A DNA stretch of 64,000 bases from Oscillospiraceae bacterium (GTDB lineage Bacteria; Bacillota; Clostridia; Oscillospirales; Oscillospiraceae): NCBI GenBank assembly GCA_031261325.1, contig JAISKH010000053.1:29539-93538 (forward strand), given 5' to 3'. The notes beneath the pieces are model-generated. The model was not told where the DNA came from and made no database searches. It saw only the letters and a list, made by a program, of their open reading frames with translations. The position numbers were made by a program, and so were the translations under genes. Positions 27,286 through 63,790 of the stretch are shown here, piece by piece; position 1 is the stretch's first letter, and every line of letters starts with the position of its first letter.

Positions 27286-27561
27286 TCAAACCTTTGCCAG
27301 AATGTTCCGCAGCGCGTTGCCGCTGCCGCAATGCGACTGCACGAGCGCGATTTTGCCCTGCGCCGCCTTACTGCGCGCCGCTTTCGCCATCGTGTGCGAC
27401 ACGGGGTTCGTGAACAGCACGATTAGGTCGGGGCTGCCGATTTGGTCGTAAAGCCGCCCCGCAACCTTAGTAAAAACCTTTGCGTCGCAGCCGTATTCGC
27501 GGCATATGCTCTTGTACTTGCACTCCATGCGCTCGTTCCCGCCGATTATAACAACACTCAT
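27286..27561 (-). CDS. Small conserved hypothetical protein (91 aa, Cys-containing)
   Basis: ORF divergent from the XRE regulator. 'HCGSGNALRNILAKV' C-terminus. No family recognised with certainty. Confidence 0.45.
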   Translation of the reverse strand: MSVVIIGGNERMECKYKSICREYGCDAKVFTKVAGRLYDQIGSPDLIVLFTNPVSHTMAKAARSKAAQGKIALVQSHCGSGNALRNILAKV

Positions 27562-27564
27562 CTT

Positions 27565-27660
27565 ATCCTCCTATGTATGAGTTAGCCGAAACTAACCCAA
27601 CTATTAGCGTATTGGTTAGCCGAAACTAACCAATACGCTAATACTACACGACAAATAGGC
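27565..27660. promoter_or_regulatory. Divergent promoter/operator region with two direct copies of an internally palindromic 16-mer plus a second inverted-repeat pair
   Basis: GTTAGCCGAAACTAAC occurs twice (27571-27586 and 27618-27633). It is itself GTTAG-ccgaaa-CTAAC. ATTAGCGTATTGG / CCAATACGCTAAT inverted repeats flank the second copy. Confidence 0.45.
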
Positions 27661-27770
27661 GTTTGTCAAGCGTTTTCGGGAAACTTATCACAATTAGTAT
27701 CACAATTATAGAACAAAATAATCTAAAAGGCAATAGATTATTTTGTTCTATTTATAATACCCGTGAGGTG

Positions 27771-27998
27771 ATGAGCATGTTGCTCAGGCGTATGCGCGAC
27801 TTGCGCGAGGACGGAGATTTGACGCAGACCCAAGTCGGCGCGGCAATCAATGTGCCGCAACGGACGTATTCCTATTACGAGACGGGGCGGCGCGGAGTTC
27901 CGCCGGAGGTGCTAATTGCGCTCGCGGAGTTTTACGGCACGAGTGTTGACTATCTTCTGAACCTGACGGACGAGAAAACGCCGTACCCGAGGAAATAA
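27771..27998 (+). CDS. XRE-family helix-turn-helix transcriptional regulator
   Basis: GAGGTG SD, then ATG. 'LREDGDLTQTQVGAAINVPQRTYSYYETGRRGVPPEVLIALAEFYGTSVDYLLNL' is an HTH_XRE domain. The ORF-track N-terminal extension (27663) is probably not translated. Confidence 0.7.
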   Translation: MSMLLRRMRDLREDGDLTQTQVGAAINVPQRTYSYYETGRRGVPPEVLIALAEFYGTSVDYLLNLTDEKTPYPRK

Positions 27999-42270: not shown

Positions 42271-45200
42271 TCAAATACTGCCGTTTACAATATCAACAGC
42301 CCTGTTAAGCGCGAAAAAGTACAACGCCCCGCGTGACACGGGCTTGCCCGTAATGCGCGTAATCGCGCGGCAATAGGACGAAATCTGCGCTGTGTAATCC
42401 TCCGCTTTCGCCGCGAGCGTCGCGTCAGTCACGCGGTCGGTCTTAAAGTCAACAACCGTAAGCGTTTCGCCGTCGTCCGCAATCAGGTCGATAACGCCCT
42501 GAAACAATATCTCGTCCTCGCCCCCGCCCGCGATAAGCTCCTCCGCACGGACGAGCAACGAAAACTTAAACTCGCGATAAACGCGCTCCGCGCCCAGCAC
42601 CTTTGCGCCAAGCTCGGACGAGACGAACGCCGCGATACTCGCGCAATCCGCCGCGTCCGCCTGCTCGCGCGAGATAATCCCCGCCGCGAGCAATCGCGCA
42701 ACCTCGCCCCGCGCGCCCTCAACCGTCGCGCACGCGCCGAACTCCACATGCTGCATAACCGCGTGCAGAGCCGTGCCGCGCTCCGCGCCTGTCAGCGCGC
42801 GCGCCGCGTCACCCGCGGACAAAAACGCGGGCTTTGCGTAAATATCGGAAAACGCCGCCTTTACAAGCGTGTCCGCGTCCTCCGCAACCTCCCCGTCGCG
42901 GAACCGCCCTTTTAGCTCCGTAGCCGTCAACTTACTCGGCAATTGCGCCGCCGACGGATACGGATACTTGAACGAAAGTCGCTCCGCAACTTCGTCAATT
43001 GACAATTGACTATTGACAGTTGACAATTCAGGCGTTGCGGGAGCAGATATATCGTCCGAAACAGCCGTTTCGCCCGCACCGCTCACGTCAGTAATCACCC
43101 GCAAATCCCACAGCTTGTCCGCGTCCTCAACCGTCAGTTGCGCAAGCAATATCATATCGAGCAGGCAACTCGTGCCGCGCAGCACGCGCGGTTCAACGGG
43201 CGTTGAAGCCGAAGCGCGCAGCTTGTCCAGCGCCGCCGTCGCGTTCGCGTGCGACCCGACAATCACAAGCTTTTCCCGCGCCCGCGTCATCGCGACGTAC
43301 AGAACGCGCAGCTCCTCCGCCCGCAGCTCCTCCGTCAGCTTTGCCGAAATCGCGCGCCGCGCAATCGTCGGGAACGCAATGCGCCGCTCGCGGTTAACGC
43401 GCTTTGCCCCAACCCCGAGCTTCGGGTGAATAAGCAGCGGTGCGGTTAAGTCAAGCCGATTGTACCCCTTGGTCATGTCGGCAAGGAACACAATCGGAAA
43501 CTCCAACCCCTTGGATTTGTGCATCGTCAGCAGCTGCACCGCGCCCGTGCCCTGCGTCTCCGCACCGCCCGTGAGGTCGCGCCCCGCCTCCCGCAGCCGC
43601 CGCACATGCGTGATAAAACCGAACAACCCCTTGTAACCGCCGCCCTCAAAGCGCCGCGCGTGGTCAATCAGCCGCGTCAGGTTGTCGCGCCGCTCCGCAC
43701 CGTGCGTCATCGCGCCGACAATCGCGGGCAGCCCCGTCCTGTTGTATACATGCCACAAAAACTTGTCGGTCGGAAGCTCGGGCGCAAGCGCGCGGAACGC
43801 GTTCAGCTCGTCCAAAAACCGCCGCGCGTCCTCGTCCGTCTCCGCCGCGACGTTTAGAGCCGTGAGGAAGTCCTCACTCGGCGCAAGCAGACGAATCCCC
43901 GCGAGCTTATCCGCCGAAAACGCGTAAATCGGACCGCGCAGCGTCGCAATCAGCGGCACATCCTGCTTCGGGTTGTCGATAACCTCCAGCAGAGACAGCG
44001 CGACAGTAATCTCCGTCGTGTCAAAAAAGCTTTCCCGCTCCGAGAACTCAACAGGTATGGCCCGCGCCGCGAGAGCCGAGCGATAAGCCGCCGCCTTGCC
44101 CTTAAAAGCGCGCAGCAGAATCGCAACGTCGCCGTAGTTCGCGCACCGAACGCCGCCGTCCTTAACGGGAACCTCAAACCCGCCCGAAATTAGCTCGTCA
44201 ATGCGCCGCGCGACAAATGCCGCCGCAAGCTCCACGTTGTCGGGCGAATCCTCGTTCTCGTCCGCGCTGTGTCTGCGTTTCGGCAAGTCAATAACGTCAA
44301 TCTCGACCGAGTGACCCTCCGTGTCGTCGTCGCGCCCGCAGAGCAGCTTCTCGTTCTCGCCGTACTCCATCTCGCCGTACTCAACCGACATGATGTTCTC
44401 AAACACGAAGTTCACCGCGTCCAAAACGTTCTTGCGTGAGCGGAAGTTTTTCGACAGCAATATCCGCTTCCCGCCGCCGTCGGTCTTTGCGAAATCGCGA
44501 TACTTCCCCAAAAATATGTTCGGGTCCGCGAGACGGAACCGATAAATCGACTGCTTCACGTCGCCGACCATGAACACGTTGCGTCCCTCGCGTGAGACCG
44601 CGCTGAATATCCGCTCCTGAACCTCGTTCACGTCCTGATATTCGTCCACCATAACCTCACGGAACCGCTCCCGCACAACGCGTGCGAACGCCGTCGGCTC
44701 ACCGTCCTCGTCAGTCAGCAGCCGCAGAGCCATGTGCTCTTGGTCGGAGAAATCGACAATGCCGCGCCGCCGCTTCGCCTCACCGTAAGCCTTGCCGAAG
44801 TCCTCCACGAGCGCAAACAACCCGCGCAGAGCGGGACGCACCGCAAGCAAATCGTCCAGCACTTTCCGCGAAGGCTCGGCAAACGACACCCGCAGCTTGT
44901 CATAAGCCGTCTTACACGCCAAGCGGCTTTCCCTAACGTCGGCGTAATCCTCGCCCGATAGCGCGACGGCTTTCGGCAGAGAAACCGCCGCGCTCGCGGT
45001 CGCGTCCCAACCAACCTTCAGCGCGTCGCAAAACGCGGTCATCACGTCGAACTGAGCTCCATACGACTTTTCAATCGTCGCGTCCCCGCGCACGCTCTCA
45101 ATCCACTCGCGCCAATAACGCATCTCCGCGAGCGCGTTGTCAAGCAGCAGCCGCCCCCAACGCGTGTCGCCAGCGTCGGCGACAGTCTCAAACGCAAGCT

Positions 45201-50002: not shown

Positions 50003-50047
50003 CTAAATAACCTCCCCCAAATAAATGTAAAAAAACCCCTCGTCCAA

Positions 50048-50075
50048 AATTGTCAATTGTCAACTGTCAATTATA
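50048..50075. repeat. Heptad-repeat element (AATTGTC x3-4), intergenic between the LRR gene and iorA
   Basis: AATTGTC AATTGTC AACTGTC AATTATA. Confidence 0.65.
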
Positions 50076-50233: not shown

Positions 50234-52072
50234 ATGTCTATTCGGCTTCTAATGGGCAACGGCGCGATTGCCGAGGGCGCGCTCGCCGCGGGAGTCACCG
50301 TCGCGACGGGCTATCCCGGCACGCCGTCCACAGAAATACTGGAAACCATTGCGAAAATACGCGACAAGAACGTCTACGTCGAGTGGTCGGTCAACGAAAA
50401 GGCCGCGCTCGAGGTCGCGGCGGGCGCGTCCTACGCGGGGCACCGCACGCTCGTAACGATGAAGCAGGTCGGCTTAAACGTCGCGTCCGACCCGCTGATG
50501 AGCCTTGCCTATATCGGCGTAAAAGGCGGCATGGTCGTCGTCGTCGCGGACGACCCGGGACCCATCTCGTCGCAAACGGAACAGGACACGCGCACATTCG
50601 CGCGCTACTCAAAGCTCCCGATATTCGACCCCGCGTCGCCCGAGGAAGCGTACGCCATGATACGCGACGCGTTCGATTACTCCGAAAAGTACTCAACGCC
50701 CGTGCTCTTCCGCCCGACGACGCGCCTTTCCCACGCGAACGCGGCAATCGACGCAACGGACGAGCGCGATGTTCGCCAGCCCGAGGGTTTTGTGAAAGAC
50801 CCCAAATGGGTAATCTTCCCCCGCCTGTCATACGCGGCGCATAAGGCAATCGAGGAGCGCAACCCCGCAATAGGCGAGGACTTCTCGTCCTACCGCTTCA
50901 ACACAATCGAGGGCAACACCTCCGCAAACGGAACAAGACTCGGCATAGCGACAGGCGGCGTGAGCTACGCCTACACGCGCGAAGCCCTGCAAATTCTCGG
51001 CGCGGACTGCCGTATACTCAAAATCGCCACGCCGTACCCGTTCCCCGAGACGCTAGCCGCGCGCTTTCTCAATGAAGTGGATACCGTGCTCGTACTCGAA
51101 GAGCTTGACCCAGTAATCGAGCGCGAACTAATCTACCTCTGCGGCAAGCTCGACAAAAGCGTAAAAATCCTCGGCAAAGGCACCCGCCACACAATAACCT
51201 CAGGCGAAAACTCCGTAGAAACAGTAACGGAGCAATTAGCCTCGTTCCTCAATTGTCAATTGTCAACCGTCAATTGTCAATTGTCACCGCCGTCGCTTCC
51301 GATTCGACCGCCCGTGCTGTGCGCCGGCTGTCCTCACCGCGCGTCGTTTTACGCGGTCAAGAAAGCGATGCACGGCAAAAAGGCAATCTTCTCCGGCGAC
51401 ATCGGCTGTTACACGCTCGGCAACGCGCAGCCGCTCGACATGGTGGATACCTGCCTGTGCATGGGCGCGGGCATCACTCTCGCGCAAGGGCTTTCCCGCG
51501 CGGAACCCGACGCGACCGTGTTCGCCTTCGTCGGCGACTCCACGTTTTTCGCCAGCGGCATGACGGGCGTCGTCAACGCCGTGTACAATAAGCACGACAT
51601 GGTGCTCGTCGTCCTCGATAACCGCATAACCGCCATGACGGGCGGGCAAACGCACCCGGGAATCGGCAAAACGCTGATGAACGAACCCGTCCCGCCGCTG
51701 AATATCCCCGCGATACTCACGGCATTCGGCATAACGCCGCGCGTCGTGAACCCGCTCGACCACAAGGCGGCTGTCGCCGCCGTCAACGAAGCCGCCGCCG
51801 AATCGGGCGTGCGCGCCATCGTGTTTGAATACCCCTGCGTCAACGTCGCGAAGCCGACGGGTTGCGCGTCGGTGGACGCGGATAAGTGTATAGCCTGCGG
51901 GAAGTGCGTGCGCGAGCTTGGTTGCCCCGCTTTGTCAATTGACAACGGACAATTGACAATTGACAATCAAGACGAGAAACGGCGCGTCACCATTGACAAG
52001 TCGCTCTGTACTGGTTGCGGCTTGTGCGCGCAAATGTGCCCCACGGGCGCAATCGCGGAGGTGTCAGAATGA
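50234..52072 (+). CDS. iorA: Indolepyruvate:ferredoxin oxidoreductase alpha subunit
   Basis: N-terminal pyrimidine-binding domain 'GNGAIAEGALAAGV ... YPGTPSTEILE'. TPP motif 'GDIGCYTLG ... GDSTFFASG'. C-terminal 2x[4Fe-4S] 'CIACGKCV ... CTGCGLCAQMCP'. Two in-frame heptad-repeat insertions (see findings). Confidence 0.9.
   Translation: MSIRLLMGNGAIAEGALAAGVTVATGYPGTPSTEILETIAKIRDKNVYVEWSVNEKAALEVAAGASYAGHRTLVTMKQVGLNVASDPLMSLAYIGVKGGMVVVVADDPGPISSQTEQDTRTFARYSKLPIFDPASPEEAYAMIRDAFDYSEKYSTPVLFRPTTRLSHANAAIDATDERDVRQPEGFVKDPKWVIFPRLSYAAHKAIEERNPAIGEDFSSYRFNTIEGNTSANGTRLGIATGGVSYAYTREALQILGADCRILKIATPYPFPETLAARFLNEVDTVLVLEELDPVIERELIYLCGKLDKSVKILGKGTRHTITSGENSVETVTEQLASFLNCQLSTVNCQLSPPSLPIRPPVLCAGCPHRASFYAVKKAMHGKKAIFSGDIGCYTLGNAQPLDMVDTCLCMGAGITLAQGLSRAEPDATVFAFVGDSTFFASGMTGVVNAVYNKHDMVLVVLDNRITAMTGGQTHPGIGKTLMNEPVPPLNIPAILTAFGITPRVVNPLDHKAAVAAVNEAAAESGVRAIVFEYPCVNVAKPTGCASVDADKCIACGKCVRELGCPALSIDNGQLTIDNQDEKRRVTIDKSLCTGCGLCAQMCPTGAIAEVSE
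51251..51285. repeat. 35-bp heptad-repeat element (AATTGTC x5, third unit variant) inside iorA
   Basis: AATTGTC AATTGTC AACCGTC AATTGTC AATTGTC. It is translated in frame as 'NCQLSTVNCQLS' in the linker before the TPP domain. Confidence 0.7.
51946..51980. repeat. 35-bp heptad-repeat element in inverse orientation (CAATTGA x5) inside iorA
   Basis: CAATTGA CAACGGA CAATTGA CAATTGA CAATCAA. It is translated as 'IDNGQLTIDNQ' between the two ferredoxin-type Cys clusters. Confidence 0.7.
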
Positions 52073-56875: not shown

Positions 56876-59800
56876 ATGAGCGGAGAAAAATTCTATGAAA
56901 TCTTTAACTGCTGCCGCGAGGATAACGCGCTGCGGGCGGTACTGGAGGAAACGACGGTCAGTTCCGTGCGCGTGGATGAAAAGTACAGCATCATACGCGT
57001 AACGCTGAATCTCCCGCACGCCGTCGCCCCCGTCGAAATTGCGGAGATTGAGCGCGTCATAGCGGCGGAATACGCGCCGATGGACGTTATTATAAAGGCG
57101 GTATACCCGAAAACCGATTCGGTCAAAAATGCTCTGAATCAACGCAAATCAGTAGTCATAATGGGCAAGAAAGCCCCGTCAGGCTCAATAACCCCGCTCG
57201 ACCGCATGGACATCGGACTCGGGCGCGTAACCGTGCGCGGCACCGTGTTCGCCGTCAGCAGCCGCCAAATTCCGAGCACGGGAGCGTGGGTGCTCACCTT
57301 TGACATAACGGATTACACAGGCTCAATCCGCATCTCGAAGTTCCTGAAGCCCGACGACAGCAAACCCGAACGAATAGTCAACGCCATTAAGGTCGGCATG
57401 TGCCTTACCATTGCGGGGCGGCTCGAAATTAACCGCTACGAGCAGAACGACGTAACGCTCGACCCGACGGCAATATCCGTCGAGCGGGTTGAAACCGTTA
57501 CGGACGACGCGCCCGAAAAGCGCGTTGAGCTTCACCTACACACCCAAATGTCAATGATGGACGCGACGACGGACACCGCCGCCGTCGTAAAGCGCGCGAT
57601 TGAGTGGGGGCACCCCGCGATAGCGATAACGGACCACGGCGTTGTGCAGTCGTTCCCCGACGCGATGAAGGCGGCGGGCGACAAGATTAAGGTGCTCTAC
57701 GGCGTGGAGGGTTATTTTCGCAACGACACCGATTCGCGCCGCGCCGTGTTCGGCAATTTCGCCGACCTGAACGAAGTCGCCGTGTTCGACATTGAAACGA
57801 CGGGCTTGTCCGCCCAACGCGACAAAATTACGGAAATCGCCTGCGTCATCGTTAAAAACGGCGAGATTATCGACGAGTTTGAAACGTTCGCAAACCCCGG
57901 CGTGCCGATTCCCCGCAACATCACGGAGCTTACGGGCATAACCGACGCGGACGTGCGCGACGCGCCGAGCCAAGTCGAAGCGGTGCGCGCGTTCCTGAAT
58001 TTCGCGGGAGACCGCCCGTTCGTCGCCCACAACGCAACGTTTGACATCGGCTTCATCTACGAGGTTTGCGCCGAAAACGGCATAGACTTCAACCCGAACT
58101 ATATCGACACGCTCGCGCTCTCCCGCGCGCTCTACCCGGACGCGAGCGGGCACCGCCTGAACGACGTGTCCGCGCGGCTGAACCTCCCCGACTTCAATCA
58201 CCACCGCGCGCTTGACGACACGCGCACGACGGGGCTGATTTACGCCCGCTTCCAGGCGCAGCTCCGCAAGCTCGGCGCGGAAACGCCCGAAGCCGTCAAC
58301 GATTACTGCTACAGCGTAGAGCGGCAGTCCACCTCACGCAGTCGTCCGCGCCTGAACCACATCATCATATTCGCCAAAACCCAAGACGGCGTTAAAAACC
58401 TCTACCGCCTCATTACGGACAGCCACCTCAAGGACTTTAACCGCAACCCGATTATCACGAAGAGTCAGCTCATGAAATACCGTGACGGATTGCTCGTCGG
58501 CTCCGCGTGCGAAGCGGGCGAGGTGTTCCGCGCGATAACCGACGGCGCGAGCCGACTTGAGCTGCGCCGCATAGCGGAGTTTTACGACTACTTGGAGATT
58601 CAGCCGATAGCCAACAACCGCTTCATGCTCCGCGGCGACAGCCCGAAGGCGACGAGCGAGGAGCAGCTCCGCGACTTCAACCGCGCCGTTGTCGCGCTCG
58701 GGCGCGAGCTGGACAAGCCCGTCGTCGCAACGGGCGACGTGCACTTCCTAGACCCGCAGGACGAAGTGTTCCGCCGCGTATTACTGACCGCAAAAGGCTT
58801 TGAGGACGCGACGAGCGAGCTGCCAATCTACTTCCGCACGACGGAGGACATGCTGTCGGAGTTCGCCTATCTCGGCGAGGAAACCGCCTATGAAGTCGTC
58901 GTCAAGAACACAAATCTCGTCGCCGACATGTGCGATAAGGTGCGCCCGCTCCCGCCCGCGAAAACGCTCTTCGCGCCCAAGATTGAAAACAGCGCGGAGG
59001 ACCTGAAGCGTCTCGTCTACACGCGCCTGCGCGAGCTTTACGGCGAAACGCCGCCCGAGCTGATTACAACGCGCGTCGAAACCGAGCTTAAGGACATACT
59101 CGACCGCAACTACGACGTCATCTACATCTCGGCGCAGCGGCTCGTCAAGGATTCGCTCGACCACGGGTATCTCGTCGGCTCGCGCGGCAGCGTCGGCTCG
59201 TCGCTCGTCGCGTATCTCGCGGGCATAACGGAGGTTAACGCGCTCCCCGCGCACTACCGCTGCGCGTCCTGTGGCGACGTGGACTTTGAGAGCGGCAAGG
59301 GCTACGGATGCGGCGCGGACATGCCCGATTTGACCTGCCCCCATTGCGGCGCGTCCTACGAAAAGGAGGGCTTTGATATTCCGTTTGAGACGTTCCTCGG
59401 CTTCGGTGGCGACAAGGTGCCCGATATTGACCTAAACTTCTCCGGCGAATATCAGGCGAACGCCCACCGCTATACAAACGAGCTGTTCGGTGAGGAACAC
59501 GTCTACCGCGCCGGCACAATCGGCACAATCGCGGAAAAAACCGCATTCGGCTATGTGAAGAAATACCTCGAGTTAATCGGCAAAACCGTGTCGCGCGCGG
59601 AGGTAAATCGGCTCGCGCTCGGGCTTGTCGGCGTAAAGCGCACGACGGGGCAGCACCCCGGCGGACTTGTCGTCATTCCGCAGGACATGGACATAACGGA
59701 CTTCTGCCCCGCGCAGCACCCCGCCGACGACAACGACACGAACATCGTCACAACGCACTTTGACTACCATTGCATGGAGGACAACCTCCTGAAGCTCGAC

Positions 59801-60859
59801 GAGTTGGGGCACGACGACCCAACCATGATACGTATGCTCGAGGACATAACGGGGCTGAACGCCCGCCAAATCCCGCTGGACGACCCCGAAACAATGGCGC
59901 TGTTCTCAACCCCCGAAACGCTCGGCTTGGAGCGTGGGGACGAAATAATCGGCAACACAGGCTCCATAGGTATCCCCGAGTTCGGCACGGGCTTCACGCG
60001 CGGAATGCTAAATGACACAAAGCCCGAAAAGTTCGATACGCTCGTCCGCCTGTCCGGCTTCTCGCATGGTACCGACGTGTGGCTCGGCAACGCCAAGGAC
60101 ATTATCATGAGCGGCACAGCGTCAATCGCGGAAACAATCGGTTGCCGCGACGATATTATGCTGTACCTCATATCGCTCGGCATGGACGAGCGGTTCGCGT
60201 TCCAAATCATGGAAGCCGTCCGAAAGGGCAGGGGACTGCCCGACGGCGCGGAGGACAAAATGCTCGCGCTCGGCGTTCCGACGTGGTACATAAACTCCTG
60301 CAAAAAAATCCAATACCTGTTCCCCAAGGCGCACGCCGTCGCCTATGTCATGATGGCGTTCCGCATCGCGTGGTTCAAGGTTCACCGCCCGCTCGCGTTC
60401 TACAGCGCGTATTTCTACCGCCGCAGCCAAAAGGACAGCTTTGACGCATCGTACATGACGCAGGGAATAGACGCGGCGCGCACTAAAATCCGCCAGCTCC
60501 GCGCCGCGATTGACGCGAAATCCGCGACGGCGAAGGACGAGGACACGCTAACAACGCTCGAAGCGTGCTACGAATTTTACAAGCGCGGCTTCACGTTCGC
60601 GAATATCGACCTCACGCGCTCCGACCCGATAAAGTTTGAAATCACGGGCGAGACGGAGCTTACCCCGCCGCTCATTGCCGTCAGCGGACTTGGCGAAACG
60701 GCGGCATACAGCATCGCGCTGAACCGCGGACGCGAATTTGTCTCCATAGAGGAGTTCGAGGCGGCGTGCACCAAAGTCTCGAAGTCGCATATCGAGCAGC
60801 TGAAATCACTCGGCGCGTTCGGCGACCTGCCCGACTCCAGCCAACTGAGCTTTTTCTAA
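56876..60859 (+). CDS. polC: DNA polymerase III PolC-type (Gram-positive replicative polymerase)
   Basis: OB domain. PHP 'ELHLHTQMSMMD'. Inserted DEDD exonuclease 'VFDIETTGL ... HNATFDIGF ... HRALDD'. Pol III alpha core 'GGDKVPDIDLNFS', then fingers/thumb. 1327 aa. Confidence 0.95.
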   Translation: MSGEKFYEIFNCCREDNALRAVLEETTVSSVRVDEKYSIIRVTLNLPHAVAPVEIAEIERVIAAEYAPMDVIIKAVYPKTDSVKNALNQRKSVVIMGKKAPSGSITPLDRMDIGLGRVTVRGTVFAVSSRQIPSTGAWVLTFDITDYTGSIRISKFLKPDDSKPERIVNAIKVGMCLTIAGRLEINRYEQNDVTLDPTAISVERVETVTDDAPEKRVELHLHTQMSMMDATTDTAAVVKRAIEWGHPAIAITDHGVVQSFPDAMKAAGDKIKVLYGVEGYFRNDTDSRRAVFGNFADLNEVAVFDIETTGLSAQRDKITEIACVIVKNGEIIDEFETFANPGVPIPRNITELTGITDADVRDAPSQVEAVRAFLNFAGDRPFVAHNATFDIGFIYEVCAENGIDFNPNYIDTLALSRALYPDASGHRLNDVSARLNLPDFNHHRALDDTRTTGLIYARFQAQLRKLGAETPEAVNDYCYSVERQSTSRSRPRLNHIIIFAKTQDGVKNLYRLITDSHLKDFNRNPIITKSQLMKYRDGLLVGSACEAGEVFRAITDGASRLELRRIAEFYDYLEIQPIANNRFMLRGDSPKATSEEQLRDFNRAVVALGRELDKPVVATGDVHFLDPQDEVFRRVLLTAKGFEDATSELPIYFRTTEDMLSEFAYLGEETAYEVVVKNTNLVADMCDKVRPLPPAKTLFAPKIENSAEDLKRLVYTRLRELYGETPPELITTRVETELKDILDRNYDVIYISAQRLVKDSLDHGYLVGSRGSVGSSLVAYLAGITEVNALPAHYRCASCGDVDFESGKGYGCGADMPDLTCPHCGASYEKEGFDIPFETFLGFGGDKVPDIDLNFSGEYQANAHRYTNELFGEEHVYRAGTIGTIAEKTAFGYVKKYLELIGKTVSRAEVNRLALGLVGVKRTTGQHPGGLVVIPQDMDITDFCPAQHPADDNDTNIVTTHFDYHCMEDNLLKLDELGHDDPTMIRMLEDITGLNARQIPLDDPETMALFSTPETLGLERGDEIIGNTGSIGIPEFGTGFTRGMLNDTKPEKFDTLVRLSGFSHGTDVWLGNAKDIIMSGTASIAETIGCRDDIMLYLISLGMDERFAFQIMEAVRKGRGLPDGAEDKMLALGVPTWYINSCKKIQYLFPKAHAVAYVMMAFRIAWFKVHRPLAFYSAYFYRRSQKDSFDASYMTQGIDAARTKIRQLRAAIDAKSATAKDEDTLTTLEACYEFYKRGFTFANIDLTRSDPIKFEITGETELTPPLIAVSGLGETAAYSIALNRGREFVSIEEFEAACTKVSKSHIEQLKSLGAFGDLPDSSQLSFF

Positions 60860-60973: not shown

Positions 60974-62236
60974 ATGAAAACAGCAAAACGTATTCTCACA
61001 TGGGCACTCGCGGTCGCGCTTGTGCTCTCGCTCACAGGCGTGTTCGCCCTCGCGGTGGAGGACGACGAGCCTGTCAAAGAAACGCGCGACGACGTTACGG
61101 CAATAACCGTCTCTGTCCGCATTGAGGGTCAAACGGAAAACCTGTTCTACAACACGGCGGTCAGGCTCGTTCCCGTCGGTGAGGAACCGCTCACCGTGCT
61201 CGACCTCGCGACGATTCTCAACGAGTCCGAAACCGCGCCCGACTTCACGTTCAAGGACAGCGGCTACGGTCCCTACATCACCGCAATCGGCGACCTCGAA
61301 GAGGGCACGAACGCCGAGTGGGACGGCTGGCAGTTCCGCGTGAACGGAATTTCGCCCGTCGTAGGCATAAGCGCGTATGAGCTTGCCGACGGCGACAGCG
61401 TGGTGTTCTATTACTCCGACGAATTTGGCATGGGCTTTGCCTTCCCCGAAATCGACCTCACCAACATTTATAACGGCAACATCAGCTTCACAACAACCGT
61501 GACGACCTACGACGACGAGGGCACGCCCTCAACCGCTGTCGTACCCGTCGCGGACGCGGTCGTGACGATAGGCGACGATACGCGCACGACCGACGAGAAC
61601 GGCACAATCGCTCTCAACGTATTCGGCGGCTTCCGTACCCTGCAAATCGAGAAAACCGACGCGGAAACAGGTATCCCGCTCGTTCTCCGCCTTGCGCCCG
61701 ATTACGAAATCTTCGTTCCGTTCACCGACACGGAGGAGGGCGCGTGGTATGACGAAGCGATTCAGTACAACGTCAAATCCGGTCTGTTCAAGGGCAATCA
61801 GGACGGCACCTTTAACCCCGACGGAAACATGACGCTCGCGGAGCTTACGCAGGTGCTCTACCGCGTCGCGGACGGAGTTGACGTCGTGGGCGCCGAGTTC
61901 TGGTACACAGGCGCGCTCAACTGGGCGGTCGAATCGGGGCTGTTCCCCGAGGAAAGCTTCAAGCCCGACGTAGTTGTCCAGCGTCAGCAGTTCATATTCT
62001 TGTTCAACAAGACGATTGAAATCGTCGGCGAACGCGATATTGAAGCGCGCGCCGACCTGACCGAAGCGACGGACTACGACGACATCAGCGGCAGCTATCT
62101 CGAAGCCGTAGAGTGGGCAGTCGCCAGCGGCCTCATCAACGGCACAAGCGAGGAAACCCTAACCATCAACCCCAAAGGCACAATCACCCGCGCGGAAGTC
62201 TGCAAAATGCTGCAAAACTATTATACCGCAGTATAA
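60974..62236 (+). CDS. Secreted cell-wall protein with C-terminal SLH (S-layer homology) repeats
   Basis: GGAGG SD + ATG. Signal peptide 'MKTAKRILTWALAVALVLSLTGVFALA'. The C-terminal repeats 'FTDTEEGAWYDEAIQYNVKSGLFKGNQDGTFNPDGNMTLAELTQVLYRV' and 'YDDISGSYLEAVEWAVASGLINGTSEETLTINPKGTITRAEVCKMLQNY' match the SLH pattern. Confidence 0.7.
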   Translation: MKTAKRILTWALAVALVLSLTGVFALAVEDDEPVKETRDDVTAITVSVRIEGQTENLFYNTAVRLVPVGEEPLTVLDLATILNESETAPDFTFKDSGYGPYITAIGDLEEGTNAEWDGWQFRVNGISPVVGISAYELADGDSVVFYYSDEFGMGFAFPEIDLTNIYNGNISFTTTVTTYDDEGTPSTAVVPVADAVVTIGDDTRTTDENGTIALNVFGGFRTLQIEKTDAETGIPLVLRLAPDYEIFVPFTDTEEGAWYDEAIQYNVKSGLFKGNQDGTFNPDGNMTLAELTQVLYRVADGVDVVGAEFWYTGALNWAVESGLFPEESFKPDVVVQRQQFIFLFNKTIEIVGERDIEARADLTEATDYDDISGSYLEAVEWAVASGLINGTSEETLTINPKGTITRAEVCKMLQNYYTAV

Positions 62237-62299: not shown

Positions 62300-62327
62300 C
62301 GTTCCATATCTGTTATCAGTTATCTGT
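62300..62327. repeat. Tandem heptad repeat (CTGTTAT x4) in the intergenic region after the SLH gene
   Basis: CTGTTAT CAGTTAT CTGTTAA CTGTTAC. Confidence 0.5.
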
Positions 62328-62350
62328 TAACTGTTACCTATCCTTGCGCT

Positions 62351-62714
62351 CCCCGCGCGGGGCCCCCTTTCTTATGCGAGAAAGGGGGGAAAGCGCACTA
62401 AAGAGGGGCTGCCGCCCCTCTTTAGAATTACCCTGCTTCTCAAAGCACTATAGTCTCCAGTCGCTATCGCAAATGAAAGGTTCTACAGCGCGGAACAGGT
62501 TCAAATATAAGCGCAAGCTCGCTCCGCGAAGCTGACAATGTTGCAACGCAGTTAATCTTGCCAAGTGGCAGCTTGCAACACCAGTTCACACCTTTAGTCC
62601 GTAACGCTGCAATTGGTTTGCGCCTAGCTGTGGGGGTGATTTTTAAGAGGGGGTTTACCCCCTCTTAAATGCGCTTCCCCCCCTTTCTCGCATAAGAAAG
62701 GGGGTCCCCGCCGG
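62351..62714. repeat. ~70-bp highly structured inverted repeats flanking a ~215-bp core (MITE-like element or structured ncRNA)
   Basis: Left arm 62351-62425: CCCCGCGCGGGG, hairpin CCCCCTTTCT-tatgcg-AGAAAGGGGGG, hairpin AAAGAGGGGC-tgcc-GCCCCTCTTT. Right arm 62642-62714 is its near-perfect reverse complement: TTAAGAGGGGG-ttta-CCCCCTCTTAA, CCCCCCCTTTCT-cgcata-AGAAAGGGGG, CCCCGCCGG. Confidence 0.5.
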
Positions 62715-62758
62715 ACAGGCGAAGCAAATCTTCTTTGAGAATTAAAAAACAATCAAAT

Positions 62759-63010
62759 TCATAAACGAGCGGCTTCCCAATATGCCCATTCATAACGGAT
62801 ACGGTACACTTTGAGTTTGGGGTTTGGTTTCAGAAAATCAATGCTAATATTTTCTTTGACACAAGGATTTCGTTCACATATAAACACCGCACCAAATGAA
62901 GGCGCGGTAATGCGATTTATATGTTCAGGTGGAATCCTTTTTACATATCCAACAATTATGTCCTTTTTTGTTGTTGTTAAAAAGTAAATTTTTGTATGCG
63001 TTAAGCGCAA
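62759..63010 (-). CDS. Hypothetical small ORF in the AT-rich island (possible gene fragment)
   Basis: ORF only. Low GC relative to the rest of the window. No motif recognised. Confidence 0.25.
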   Translation of the reverse strand: MRLTHTKIYFLTTTKKDIIVGYVKRIPPEHINRITAPSFGAVFICERNPCVKENISIDFLKPNPKLKVYRIRYEWAYWEAARL

Positions 63011-63114
63011 ACATTTTGTTTAGTTCTTTTATCTGACTTCCGAATCTAATTGATATGACCTTGTGCCGTGTCGCTTTATAAGCAATAATATCATAGAGAC
63101 ACAAACAAATACTC

Positions 63115-63790
63115 GTGCGCCAGCAACAGAAAGTTGTACTTCACGCTGTTAGTTTTCCAATATCCCGTTGCTGTGCAGTTGCGCCGCTCCTTGATGATGA
63201 TTTTCTTCAGTCGGAATCCGGCGCCCTCAAAAATCCGCATCACCTCGAAGCGCATCGGCACGACGTGACCCTTTGCGCGTATTCCCCATTAAAATCGTGC
63301 AAAACTTGTCCCTTTTCAGCACGCGGTAGCTCTCGGCGGCGACGAGTTTCATCTGCTACAAAAAGTCCTTCACGTCCAGATAGTCATCTGCGATGTCCTC
63401 GCTGTACTGAATGATGTTCGCGTAAGGCGGGTAAGTGCCTATTAAATAGACGCTGCTGTTCGGCGCGAAGTCCAAGTGCCGCGGTCGCCCTTGTAGACTT
63501 TGACTTCGCCCGCATTTTCGTACTCGAAATCGCACTTTTCTTTGCATCGCGCCAGCGCGGAGATGTTCACATCACCGCCGATGATATTGCGACGCAGCAG
63601 CTTCGCCTCGACAAGCGTCGTGCCGCTGCCGACGAATAGGTCGAGCACCAAGTCGCCCTCCTGCGATTAGCGCAACAAAATATTGCGCGGGATATACGGC
63701 GACCAGTTGTCGCACTTGGGGAAGCTTCGGACGGTGTTCATTTCGAGTTCAAAATCGTCGGGAGCGAATTTTTGATTTGTTTCATTAAGT
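63115..63790 (-). pseudogene. Decayed DNA amino-methyltransferase gene fragment(s) (beta-class N6A/N4C MTase motifs split over several frames)
   Basis: Minus-strand frames give 'DLVLDLFVGSGTTLVEAKLLRRNIIGGDVNISALARCKEK' (motif I, FxGxG + C-terminal tail). A different frame gives 'SSVYLIGTYPPYANIIQY' (motif IV, SPPY-like), then 'KFCTILMGNTRKGHVVPMRFEVMRIFEGAGFRLKK'. Stops and frameshifts separate them. Confidence 0.5.

Follow-up and report, generated by a model that had tools for sequence, protein, structure and literature searches.

The window, as we call the whole stretch of 64,000 nucleotides analysed here, comes from the chromosome of an uncultured Oscillospiraceae bacterium of gut type. 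In the space where two genes converge it carries a non-coding element of some 370 bp (about 350-420 bp), in which two mirror-image arms of serial hairpins face each other across a short core. What kind of element is this, how did it reach its position, and what might it do there? The initial annotation had proposed a MITE (miniature inverted-repeat transposable element) or, alternatively, one large structured RNA. We find that the arm module is an undescribed family of dispersed intergenic hairpin repeats in Oscillospiraceae, represented in the window and in several other genera. As to the element itself, we lean on balance towards a non-coding repeat of the hairpin module from this undescribed family, of the MITE/REP/BIME/SPRITE kind, present as a single copy or as two copies placed head to head.

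Anatomy of the element and its genomic context

The element and its neighbourhood comprise the following features (window coordinates; H1, H2 and H3 are the hairpins of each arm).

56876-60859: polC, assigned by reading the translation
60974-62236, plus strand: gene with DUF4430 and SLH domains (Pfam), upstream of the element and converging on it
62306-62341, plus strand: diverged heptamer array (TATCTGT TATCAGT TATCTGT TAACTGT TACCTAT), adjoining the left arm on its outer side
62345-62441, plus strand: left arm, in the order TGCGCT/AGCGCA stem, H1, H2, GAAAGCGCA linker, H3, AATTACCC tail
62349-62433: covariance-model match of the left arm, 88.6 bits
62351-62362: left H1, 4-bp GC stem, CCCC-GCGC-GGGG or GCGC-TCCCC-GCGC
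62363-62388: left H2, CCCCCTTTCT-TATGCG-AGAAAGGGGG
62398-62425: left H3, perfect 12-bp stem, CTAAAGAGGGGC-TGCC-GCCCCTCTTTAG
62434-62633, no strand: core, 200 nt, non-coding, without detectable structure
62626-62724, minus strand: right arm, in the order H1, H2, GGAAGCGCA linker, H3, AATCACCC tail
62634-62718: covariance-model match of the right arm, 86.9 bits
62642-62669: right H3, perfect 12-bp stem, read on the plus strand as TTTAAGAGGGGG-TTTA-CCCCCTCTTAAA
62679-62704: right H2, same stem and loop as left H2
62709-62721: right H1, 4-bp GC stem, CGCC-GGACA-GGCG
62759-63720, minus strand: decayed gene fragments (ORF list), converging on the right arm, among them N6_N4 DNA-methylase parts that lie in different reading frames, with weak methylase blastn matches
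63442-63651: N6_N4_Mtase (Pfam)

The pair of mirror-image arms first annotated, with three GC-rich hairpins apiece, was recovered in place by a repeat search, which delimits the arms at 62359-62433 and 62634-62708 (75 nt each, 84% complementary) with a spacer of 200 nt; the core had been given as 215 bp and is corrected to this length. An identical stretch of 27 nt lies within the inverted repeats that flank the 200-bp segment. In a global alignment a weaker similarity from arm to arm reaches further, to about 62345-62441 and 62626-62724. H2 is the same in both arms, loop included, a coincidence for which no chance matches are expected (there was no match in any shuffle). The left arm has an additional 6-bp stem, in which TGCGCT at 62345-62350 pairs with AGCGCA at 62392-62397 and encloses H1 and H2. 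The arms are the sole long inverted repeat of their type in the 64 kb, the other four pairs being heptamer arrays or weak, and even a covariance model run with filters off finds only this one element in the window.

To the left, housekeeping genes continue beyond polC (addAB, indolepyruvate/pyruvate ferredoxin oxidoreductase, apbE and others). Neither reading of the sequence nor a terminator scan reveals a classical terminator between the stop codon of the SLH gene and the left arm. To the right of the element the GC content drops from about 0.60 to 0.48. The position first described, at the border of the SLH gene and an AT-rich island, holds, the "island" being a region of decayed genes with DNA-methylase fragments. 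As the SLH gene lies on the plus strand and the fragments to the right on the minus strand, the element sits between converging genes. A pseudogene of an N6_N4 DNA methyltransferase can be recognised on the minus strand at 63100-63720, where a YPPY motif and motif I (FVGSGTT) are visible; the exact protein of the open reading frame at 62762-63010 is not on record. No recombinase or transposase is seen in the genes around the element within the window. An origin from a phage or plasmid was considered and rejected, with blastn of the element and a scan of viral contigs both empty and only methylase motifs in the right flank. A tRNA integration site was likewise rejected, there being no tRNA genes in the 64-kb window.

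The SLH protein has an exact match recorded from an Oscillospiraceae MAG (metagenome-assembled genome). Only one other contig carries the exact SLH protein, the Logan contig L040 from run SRR14710919. It ends at window position 62305, the boundary between GC-rich and AT-rich sequence just ahead of the heptamer array and the element. This end could be a polymorphic junction or a loss of coverage at the hairpins.

Elsewhere in the window, perfect palindromes occur at 27560-27780 (a 17-bp stem at 27602-27643 and an AT-rich 18-bp stem at 27708-27751), where divergent promoters are located, upstream of a gene of small size whose translation reads as a predicted regulator of the XRE-type HTH class. 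These two palindromes are probably operators.

Folding and the unit of conservation

As RNA, the whole element folds far more stably than its dinucleotide shuffles (z = -10.4 on the plus and -13.8 on the minus strand). Single arms folded as DNA likewise exceed their shuffles (z = -4.3 to -6.3, with -6.3 for the left and -4.5 for the right arm). The core shows no such excess over shuffles (z = +0.34 on the plus and -0.37 on the minus strand). It contains no credible open reading frame, only a GTG frame of 41 codons' worth of amino acids (41 aa), and the sole frames in the whole element are of 41-42 aa and have no support. There is no sigma-70-like promoter in the core, nor does the core match other members of the family, phages or plasmids.

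The substitution pattern in H3 is informative as to what is being maintained. Between the left and the right H3 three stem positions differ (C/T, A/T and C/G), and all three are compensated at the partner position. These changes keep both hairpins perfect, while the complementarity from arm to arm drops. Since the differences between the arms are compensated inside local hairpins, we interpret the hairpins, and not one giant fold, as the conserved unit. The proposal that the entire stretch of about 360 bp forms one large structured RNA is not supported: the core is unstructured, and the differences between the arms spare the local hairpins at the cost of long-range pairing. The perfect local palindromes may be kept by selection for the hairpins, or alternatively by templated intra-strand correction, a process known for quasi-palindromes.

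Relatives of the arm module

The stems of H2 with a free loop (CCCCCTTTCT-N6-AGAAAGGGGG) were scanned in one genome per species for 185,579 species, which yielded 39 loci where about one is expected by chance. Eleven of these are different contigs of a single Angelakisella metagenome-assembled genome (MAG), nearly all with the match at a contig end; four are contigs of a Flavonifractor MAG and two belong to "Clostridiales" MAGs (L002, L032), the remainder being ordinary terminators in unrelated phyla. The family-level pattern occurs at nine further loci in metagenomes, of which seven are Angelakisella-like and derive from fermentation metagenomes. A search of the JGI metagenomes for the exact H2 26-mer was empty, and the TATGCG loop is found in no GTDB species representative.

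The related loci share the order H1, GGGG, H2 (CCCCCTTTCT-N6-AGAAAGGGGG), GRAAG, a few bases, and H3. Identity of H2 across loci is uninformative because H2 was the search pattern. The sequence beside it is not subject to this ascertainment: in fixed register, the 18+18 nt adjoining H2 agree with the window arms at 17-24 of 36 positions in the Angelakisella, Flavonifractor and "Clostridiales" loci, compared with 5-14 of 36 in unrelated loci that contain H2. A covariance model of the arm (R1) gives 53-54 bits to Flavonifractor copies outside its training set and 45 bits to L002, against 20-31 bits for loci with H2 only, and a profile made solely of Angelakisella copies matches both window arms (E = 2e-6 and 5e-5).

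Structure is likewise retained across lineages. H3 occupies the same position in every lineage with a different, perfectly paired stem, and 9 of the 21 consensus pairs carry double compensated changes. The right arm of L013, a Flavonifractor locus, has a compensated variant of H2 (CTACTTTCTCC...GGAGAAAGTAG). Beyond H1-H2-GRAAG, a shuffle test shows no significant sequence similarity to the rest of the family; for H3, homology is indicated only by where it lies and how it folds. A longer homology of the arm interior or the core to the Angelakisella element was suggestive by eye and was discarded, being not significant against shuffles. As the TATGCG loop occurs in no other family member, the two arms of the window are each other's closest relatives. 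The recurrence of the module in other Oscillospiraceae implies that the element is a member of an undescribed family of hairpin repeats, MITE-like or REP/BIME-like.

Arrangement and dispersal within the family

The genes flanking the copies differ and are of the housekeeping kind (mutS, dnaE, purB, ribonucleotide reductase, cmk), and copies lie in both orientations relative to their neighbours. No transposase or RAYT-like gene was seen beside the copies among the few flanking open reading frames inspected, and none of the 39 genome and 9 metagenome loci has two modules bracketing a gene-sized gap.

Several layouts occur. The module is found solo at L043/L032 and at L059, and tandem outer units are found at L024 and L059. 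L013 is a two-armed copy around a different core of 450 nt, parts of which recur in mosaic fashion in other Flavonifractor copies. A two-armed Angelakisella element was considered and dropped: in L059, which alone among the contigs runs right across an Angelakisella copy, one module is succeeded by a long hairpin in the centre. An open frame through the interior of L059, which ends at H3, was judged non-coding; its translation is of low complexity and it overlaps a long hairpin.

In Angelakisella the sequence outside H2 contains a conserved unit of about 136 nt, with a terminator-like hairpin, TTTTAGCCAAAGTTATC...TTTACTCT, and a covarying TGGGN...NCCCA hairpin. This unit is repeated in tandem two to three times before the H2 module (L024 125-419; L059 1700-1940). 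The Flavonifractor MAG has a multi-copy non-coding element of about 600 nt with ends of the H1-H2-H3 type (L013 1290-1960, which equals L050 and L051, and the starts of L005, L009 and L021). Its mosaic core is rich in hairpins with GNRA-like tetraloops (fold z = -7.0 and -4.7) and has no Rfam match; at L009 the element adjoins the region of the mutS start codon.

Short-read contigs almost always end inside elements of this family. In a search for empty sites with a Flavonifractor flank protein, the element was present or the contig broke inside it in all nine contigs listed. For the Angelakisella purB copy no empty site was found, the nearest PurB relatives being only 79% identical.

Transposon or dispersed palindromic repeat

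MITEs are defined as non-coding elements of less than 500 bp with terminal inverted repeats (TIRs) and a stable folded transcript; their TIRs measure about 4-30 bp and they are usually AT-rich (PMC10969869). The MITE reading of the initial annotation stands in so far as the element is non-coding, shorter than 500 bp and bounded by long TIRs, with a module that is multi-copy beside unrelated genes in other Oscillospiraceae. It falls short in that there is no target-site duplication (TSD) and no nearby transposase, arms of 75 nt rich in GC are atypical, and the module also occurs solo. In particular, the flanking direct repeats that might betray a target-site duplication reach at best 7 nt (TCCCCGC), which lie inside H1, and repeats of at least 7 nt turned up in 28% of 300 control scans. 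Target-site duplications decay with age, and their absence is not decisive against a MITE.

In its strict form this reading would make the element one non-autonomous transposon of the DDE type, with the 75-nt arms as its TIRs, mobilised in trans by an insertion sequence whose ends match its own. We regard this as unlikely, even though the element agrees with the published definition (PMC10969869), its arms resemble a family that is multi-copy in related genomes, and L013 shows the two-armed layout with a different core. Apart from the lack of a target-site duplication above chance, the arms are GC-rich and 2-3 times longer than typical TIRs, and a gap of transposase size between two modules is seen at none of the 48 loci. 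Solo modules (L043, L059) are not predicted by ordinary transposition of TIR elements, and the differences between the arms spare the local hairpins rather than the identity of one arm to the other. Because the module occurs solo, what looks like TIRs plus a core may be two inverted modules and not one transposon. Arms of 75-100 nt made of serial GC-rich hairpins, together with the solo modules, lead us to place the element among hairpin-forming dispersed repeats and not among proven MITEs.

Prokaryotic MITEs such as the Correia elements of Neisseria, RUP of Streptococcus pneumoniae and QMITE of Coxiella (PMC10969869) resemble the element in being short, non-coding and intergenic, with TIRs and a stable stem-loop transcript, and the relatives of the element are likewise multi-copy in related genomes. 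They differ from it in that its arms are 75-100 nt long, GC-rich and composed of serial perfect hairpins, that no TSD was found, and that its modules occur solo or in mosaics.

A second likeness is to repeats whose unit is the palindrome itself. The REP/BIME/REPIN repeats of Proteobacteria are GC-rich extragenic palindromes of 20-40 nt which may stand alone, pair up in inverted orientation or form mosaics. They often lie between convergent genes, where stabilisation of 3' ends or attenuation of transcription is attributed to them, and their stems evolve by compensated changes. The family described here likewise consists of GC-rich extragenic palindromes in solo, two-armed (inverted-pair) and tandem-mosaic layouts across loci, and at the window it has compensated stems and a site between convergent genes. 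Unlike REP repeats, its module is about 85 nt long with three different hairpins, no 5' motif of the GTAG type was seen, and the host is a Firmicute; the copy number also appears low here (one in 64 kb; 11 contig ends in one MAG). The SPRITE and BOX repeats of Streptococcus pneumoniae (mentioned in PMC10969869) are intergenic repeats of a Gram-positive host, modular and terminator-like, which form hairpins, cluster and can insert into one another. The likeness is one of description, no relationship of sequence having been seen, and lies in the modular or mosaic layout, while H2 and H3 of the element, unlike those repeats, have no rho-independent U-tract.

If the element is such a dispersed hairpin-module repeat, it would have come into the gap that separates the converging genes, on the margin of an AT-rich region in decay, either by insertion or through an inverted duplication of the module on the spot. 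Its two arms may represent the ends of a single element or the outcome of such a duplication. The element would make no trans-acting product.

Orthologous loci and a possible role at the 3' end

The same position behind orthologs of the SLH gene was compared at three loci. The closest ortholog (L060, 64% identity) is followed about 25 nt past its stop codon by a plain intrinsic terminator, AAAAGCCCGCC-TTTC-GGCGGGCTTTTT. Behind a 48%-identical ortholog, L061, which also lies ahead of a converging gene, there is a different two-armed element (1489-1714), composed of a (GTTGACA)n array, a hairpin GTCGCGC-GAA-GCGCGAC, a central classical terminator, the mirrored hairpin and a (CTGTCAA)x6 array. 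In a third ortholog, L062, an (AACAATT)n array directly follows the stop codon (2139-2171). These terminators and palindromic repeats suggest that the position is a terminator site which has been colonised, or replaced, by palindromic repeats in this lineage.

With read-through of transcription that enters from the SLH gene, or on the opposite strand, each arm would fold into very stable stem-loops. These may act as a barrier to transcription or protect 3' ends, against RNA polymerase or 3' exonucleases respectively, and the element might in effect substitute for the ordinary terminator of the closest ortholog. Impeding the polymerase or 3' exonucleases is the role usually ascribed to repeats of the REP and SPRITE type. 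The tails that follow the hairpins (TTTAGAAT on the left, plus strand; TTAAAAAT on the right, minus strand) give neither H3 a good U-tract, and an intrinsic-terminator scan picks out neither H2 nor H3; for both reasons we consider a terminator role plausible, not demonstrated.

These observations could also be accommodated by a barrier specific to this locus, acting on transcription from both sides, which arose by local inverted duplication with no mobility at the locus. The flanking genes converge on the element, no other terminator follows the SLH stop codon, the orthologous position is held by a plain terminator in L060 and by a two-armed hairpin element with a central terminator in L061, and the arms share a TATGCG loop that is absent from other family members. 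The hairpins without proper U-tracts, and H2 and H3 escaping the terminator scan, speak against it, and a purely local origin leaves the sharing of the module with distant loci in other genera unexplained. We consider it likewise an unlikely account of the element. A member of the dispersed hairpin-repeat family, which we prefer, may still have come to serve the SLH transcript as outlined above.

Heptamer arrays

The diverged array at 62306-62341 reads TAACAGA/TAACTGA on the minus strand, and it may be part of the left end of the element or a separate repeat. Other heptamers are scattered through the window. Tandem (TTGACAR)n arrays lie at 42994-43028, 50047-50075, 51246-51287 and 51932-51970, and TTGACARTTGACAR has 22 matches at up to two mismatches where 0.6 are expected. 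Three of the arrays are inside coding sequence, one in an addA-like open reading frame and two in an oxidoreductase frame at 50234-52072, the latter two mutually inverted and 646 nt apart. One coding array of six units (42 nt) stays in frame, giving 'NCQLSTVNCQLS'.

None of roughly 60 other loci that were fetched has heptamer arrays, which seem to be a trait of the lineage of the window, L061 and L062. The arrays of the window recall the TAACTGA heptamer repeats that occur in Beggiatoaceae, Cyanobacteria and Bacteroidetes (PMC4679880); no published report of such arrays in Clostridia was found in the literature searched. On the rather improbable reading of the hairpin module as a recognition signal, set out below, the TTGACAR arrays found alongside such elements in this lineage might likewise be a repeat system of an unexplained kind that is linked to them.

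Recognition signal, functional RNA or DNA switch

The arrangement H1-H2-GRAAG-H3 might be a specific recognition signal and not merely passive palindromic DNA, namely the hairpin substrate of a transposase of the HUH/Y1 type, the target of a structure-specific nuclease, or the binding site of an RNA-binding regulator. The idea fits the free variation of loops and H3 stems, set beside the conservation of the H2 stem and the unpaired GRAAG from genus to genus. We hold it to be rather improbable; if true, the signal would define a new class of mobile or regulatory elements in Oscillospiraceae.

That the hairpins are functional RNA, as a structured non-coding RNA gene or a protein-bound element of the 3' UTR, appears quite improbable. 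The very stable folding of the arms, their compensated stems and the unpaired GRAAG linker that is conserved across genera count in its favour. Against it, a search of the window gave no Rfam match at the gathering threshold nor at E <= 10, only chance-level scores (E >= 0.6), and 12 related loci likewise gave no match at the gathering threshold and only chance-level scores (E >= 0.6). A hit to a known RNA family, which the initial annotation had named as grounds for abandoning the MITE reading, is hence absent as well. There is no promoter, the core is unstructured, and both strands fold equally well, as palindromes of DNA would. The balance of G-T versus A-C pairs in the H0 hairpins of Angelakisella shows no strand bias in what is a small sample, and the presence of copies in both orientations relative to their neighbours likewise speaks against such an RNA. 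In all likelihood the element is no new RNA gene but a repeat of an ordinary kind, selfish or terminator-like.

It is highly improbable that the element acts as an invertible switch in the DNA or as a site of recombination marking the end of the AT-rich island: inverted repeats with a 27-nt identical core do flank a 200-bp segment, a composition boundary lies at the element, and the SRR14710919 contig ends at 62305 before the heptamer array, but no recombinase is seen nearby, the core has no promoter to flip, both flanking genes point inward and leave nothing downstream to regulate, and the contig break could equally be a loss of coverage at strong hairpins.

Significance of the repeat family

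The family of hairpin repeats to which we assign the element is unannotated in Oscillospiraceae, a major but poorly characterised clade of gut and fermenter bacteria. It breaks short-read assemblies, with most copies at contig ends, and its members could pass for an RNA gene or a transposon. At the window locus the element, in the model outlined here, probably just ends or stabilises the transcript of the SLH gene. If the module is mobile or recognised by a protein, it would provide a handle on genome plasticity and on 3'-end control in Oscillospiraceae.
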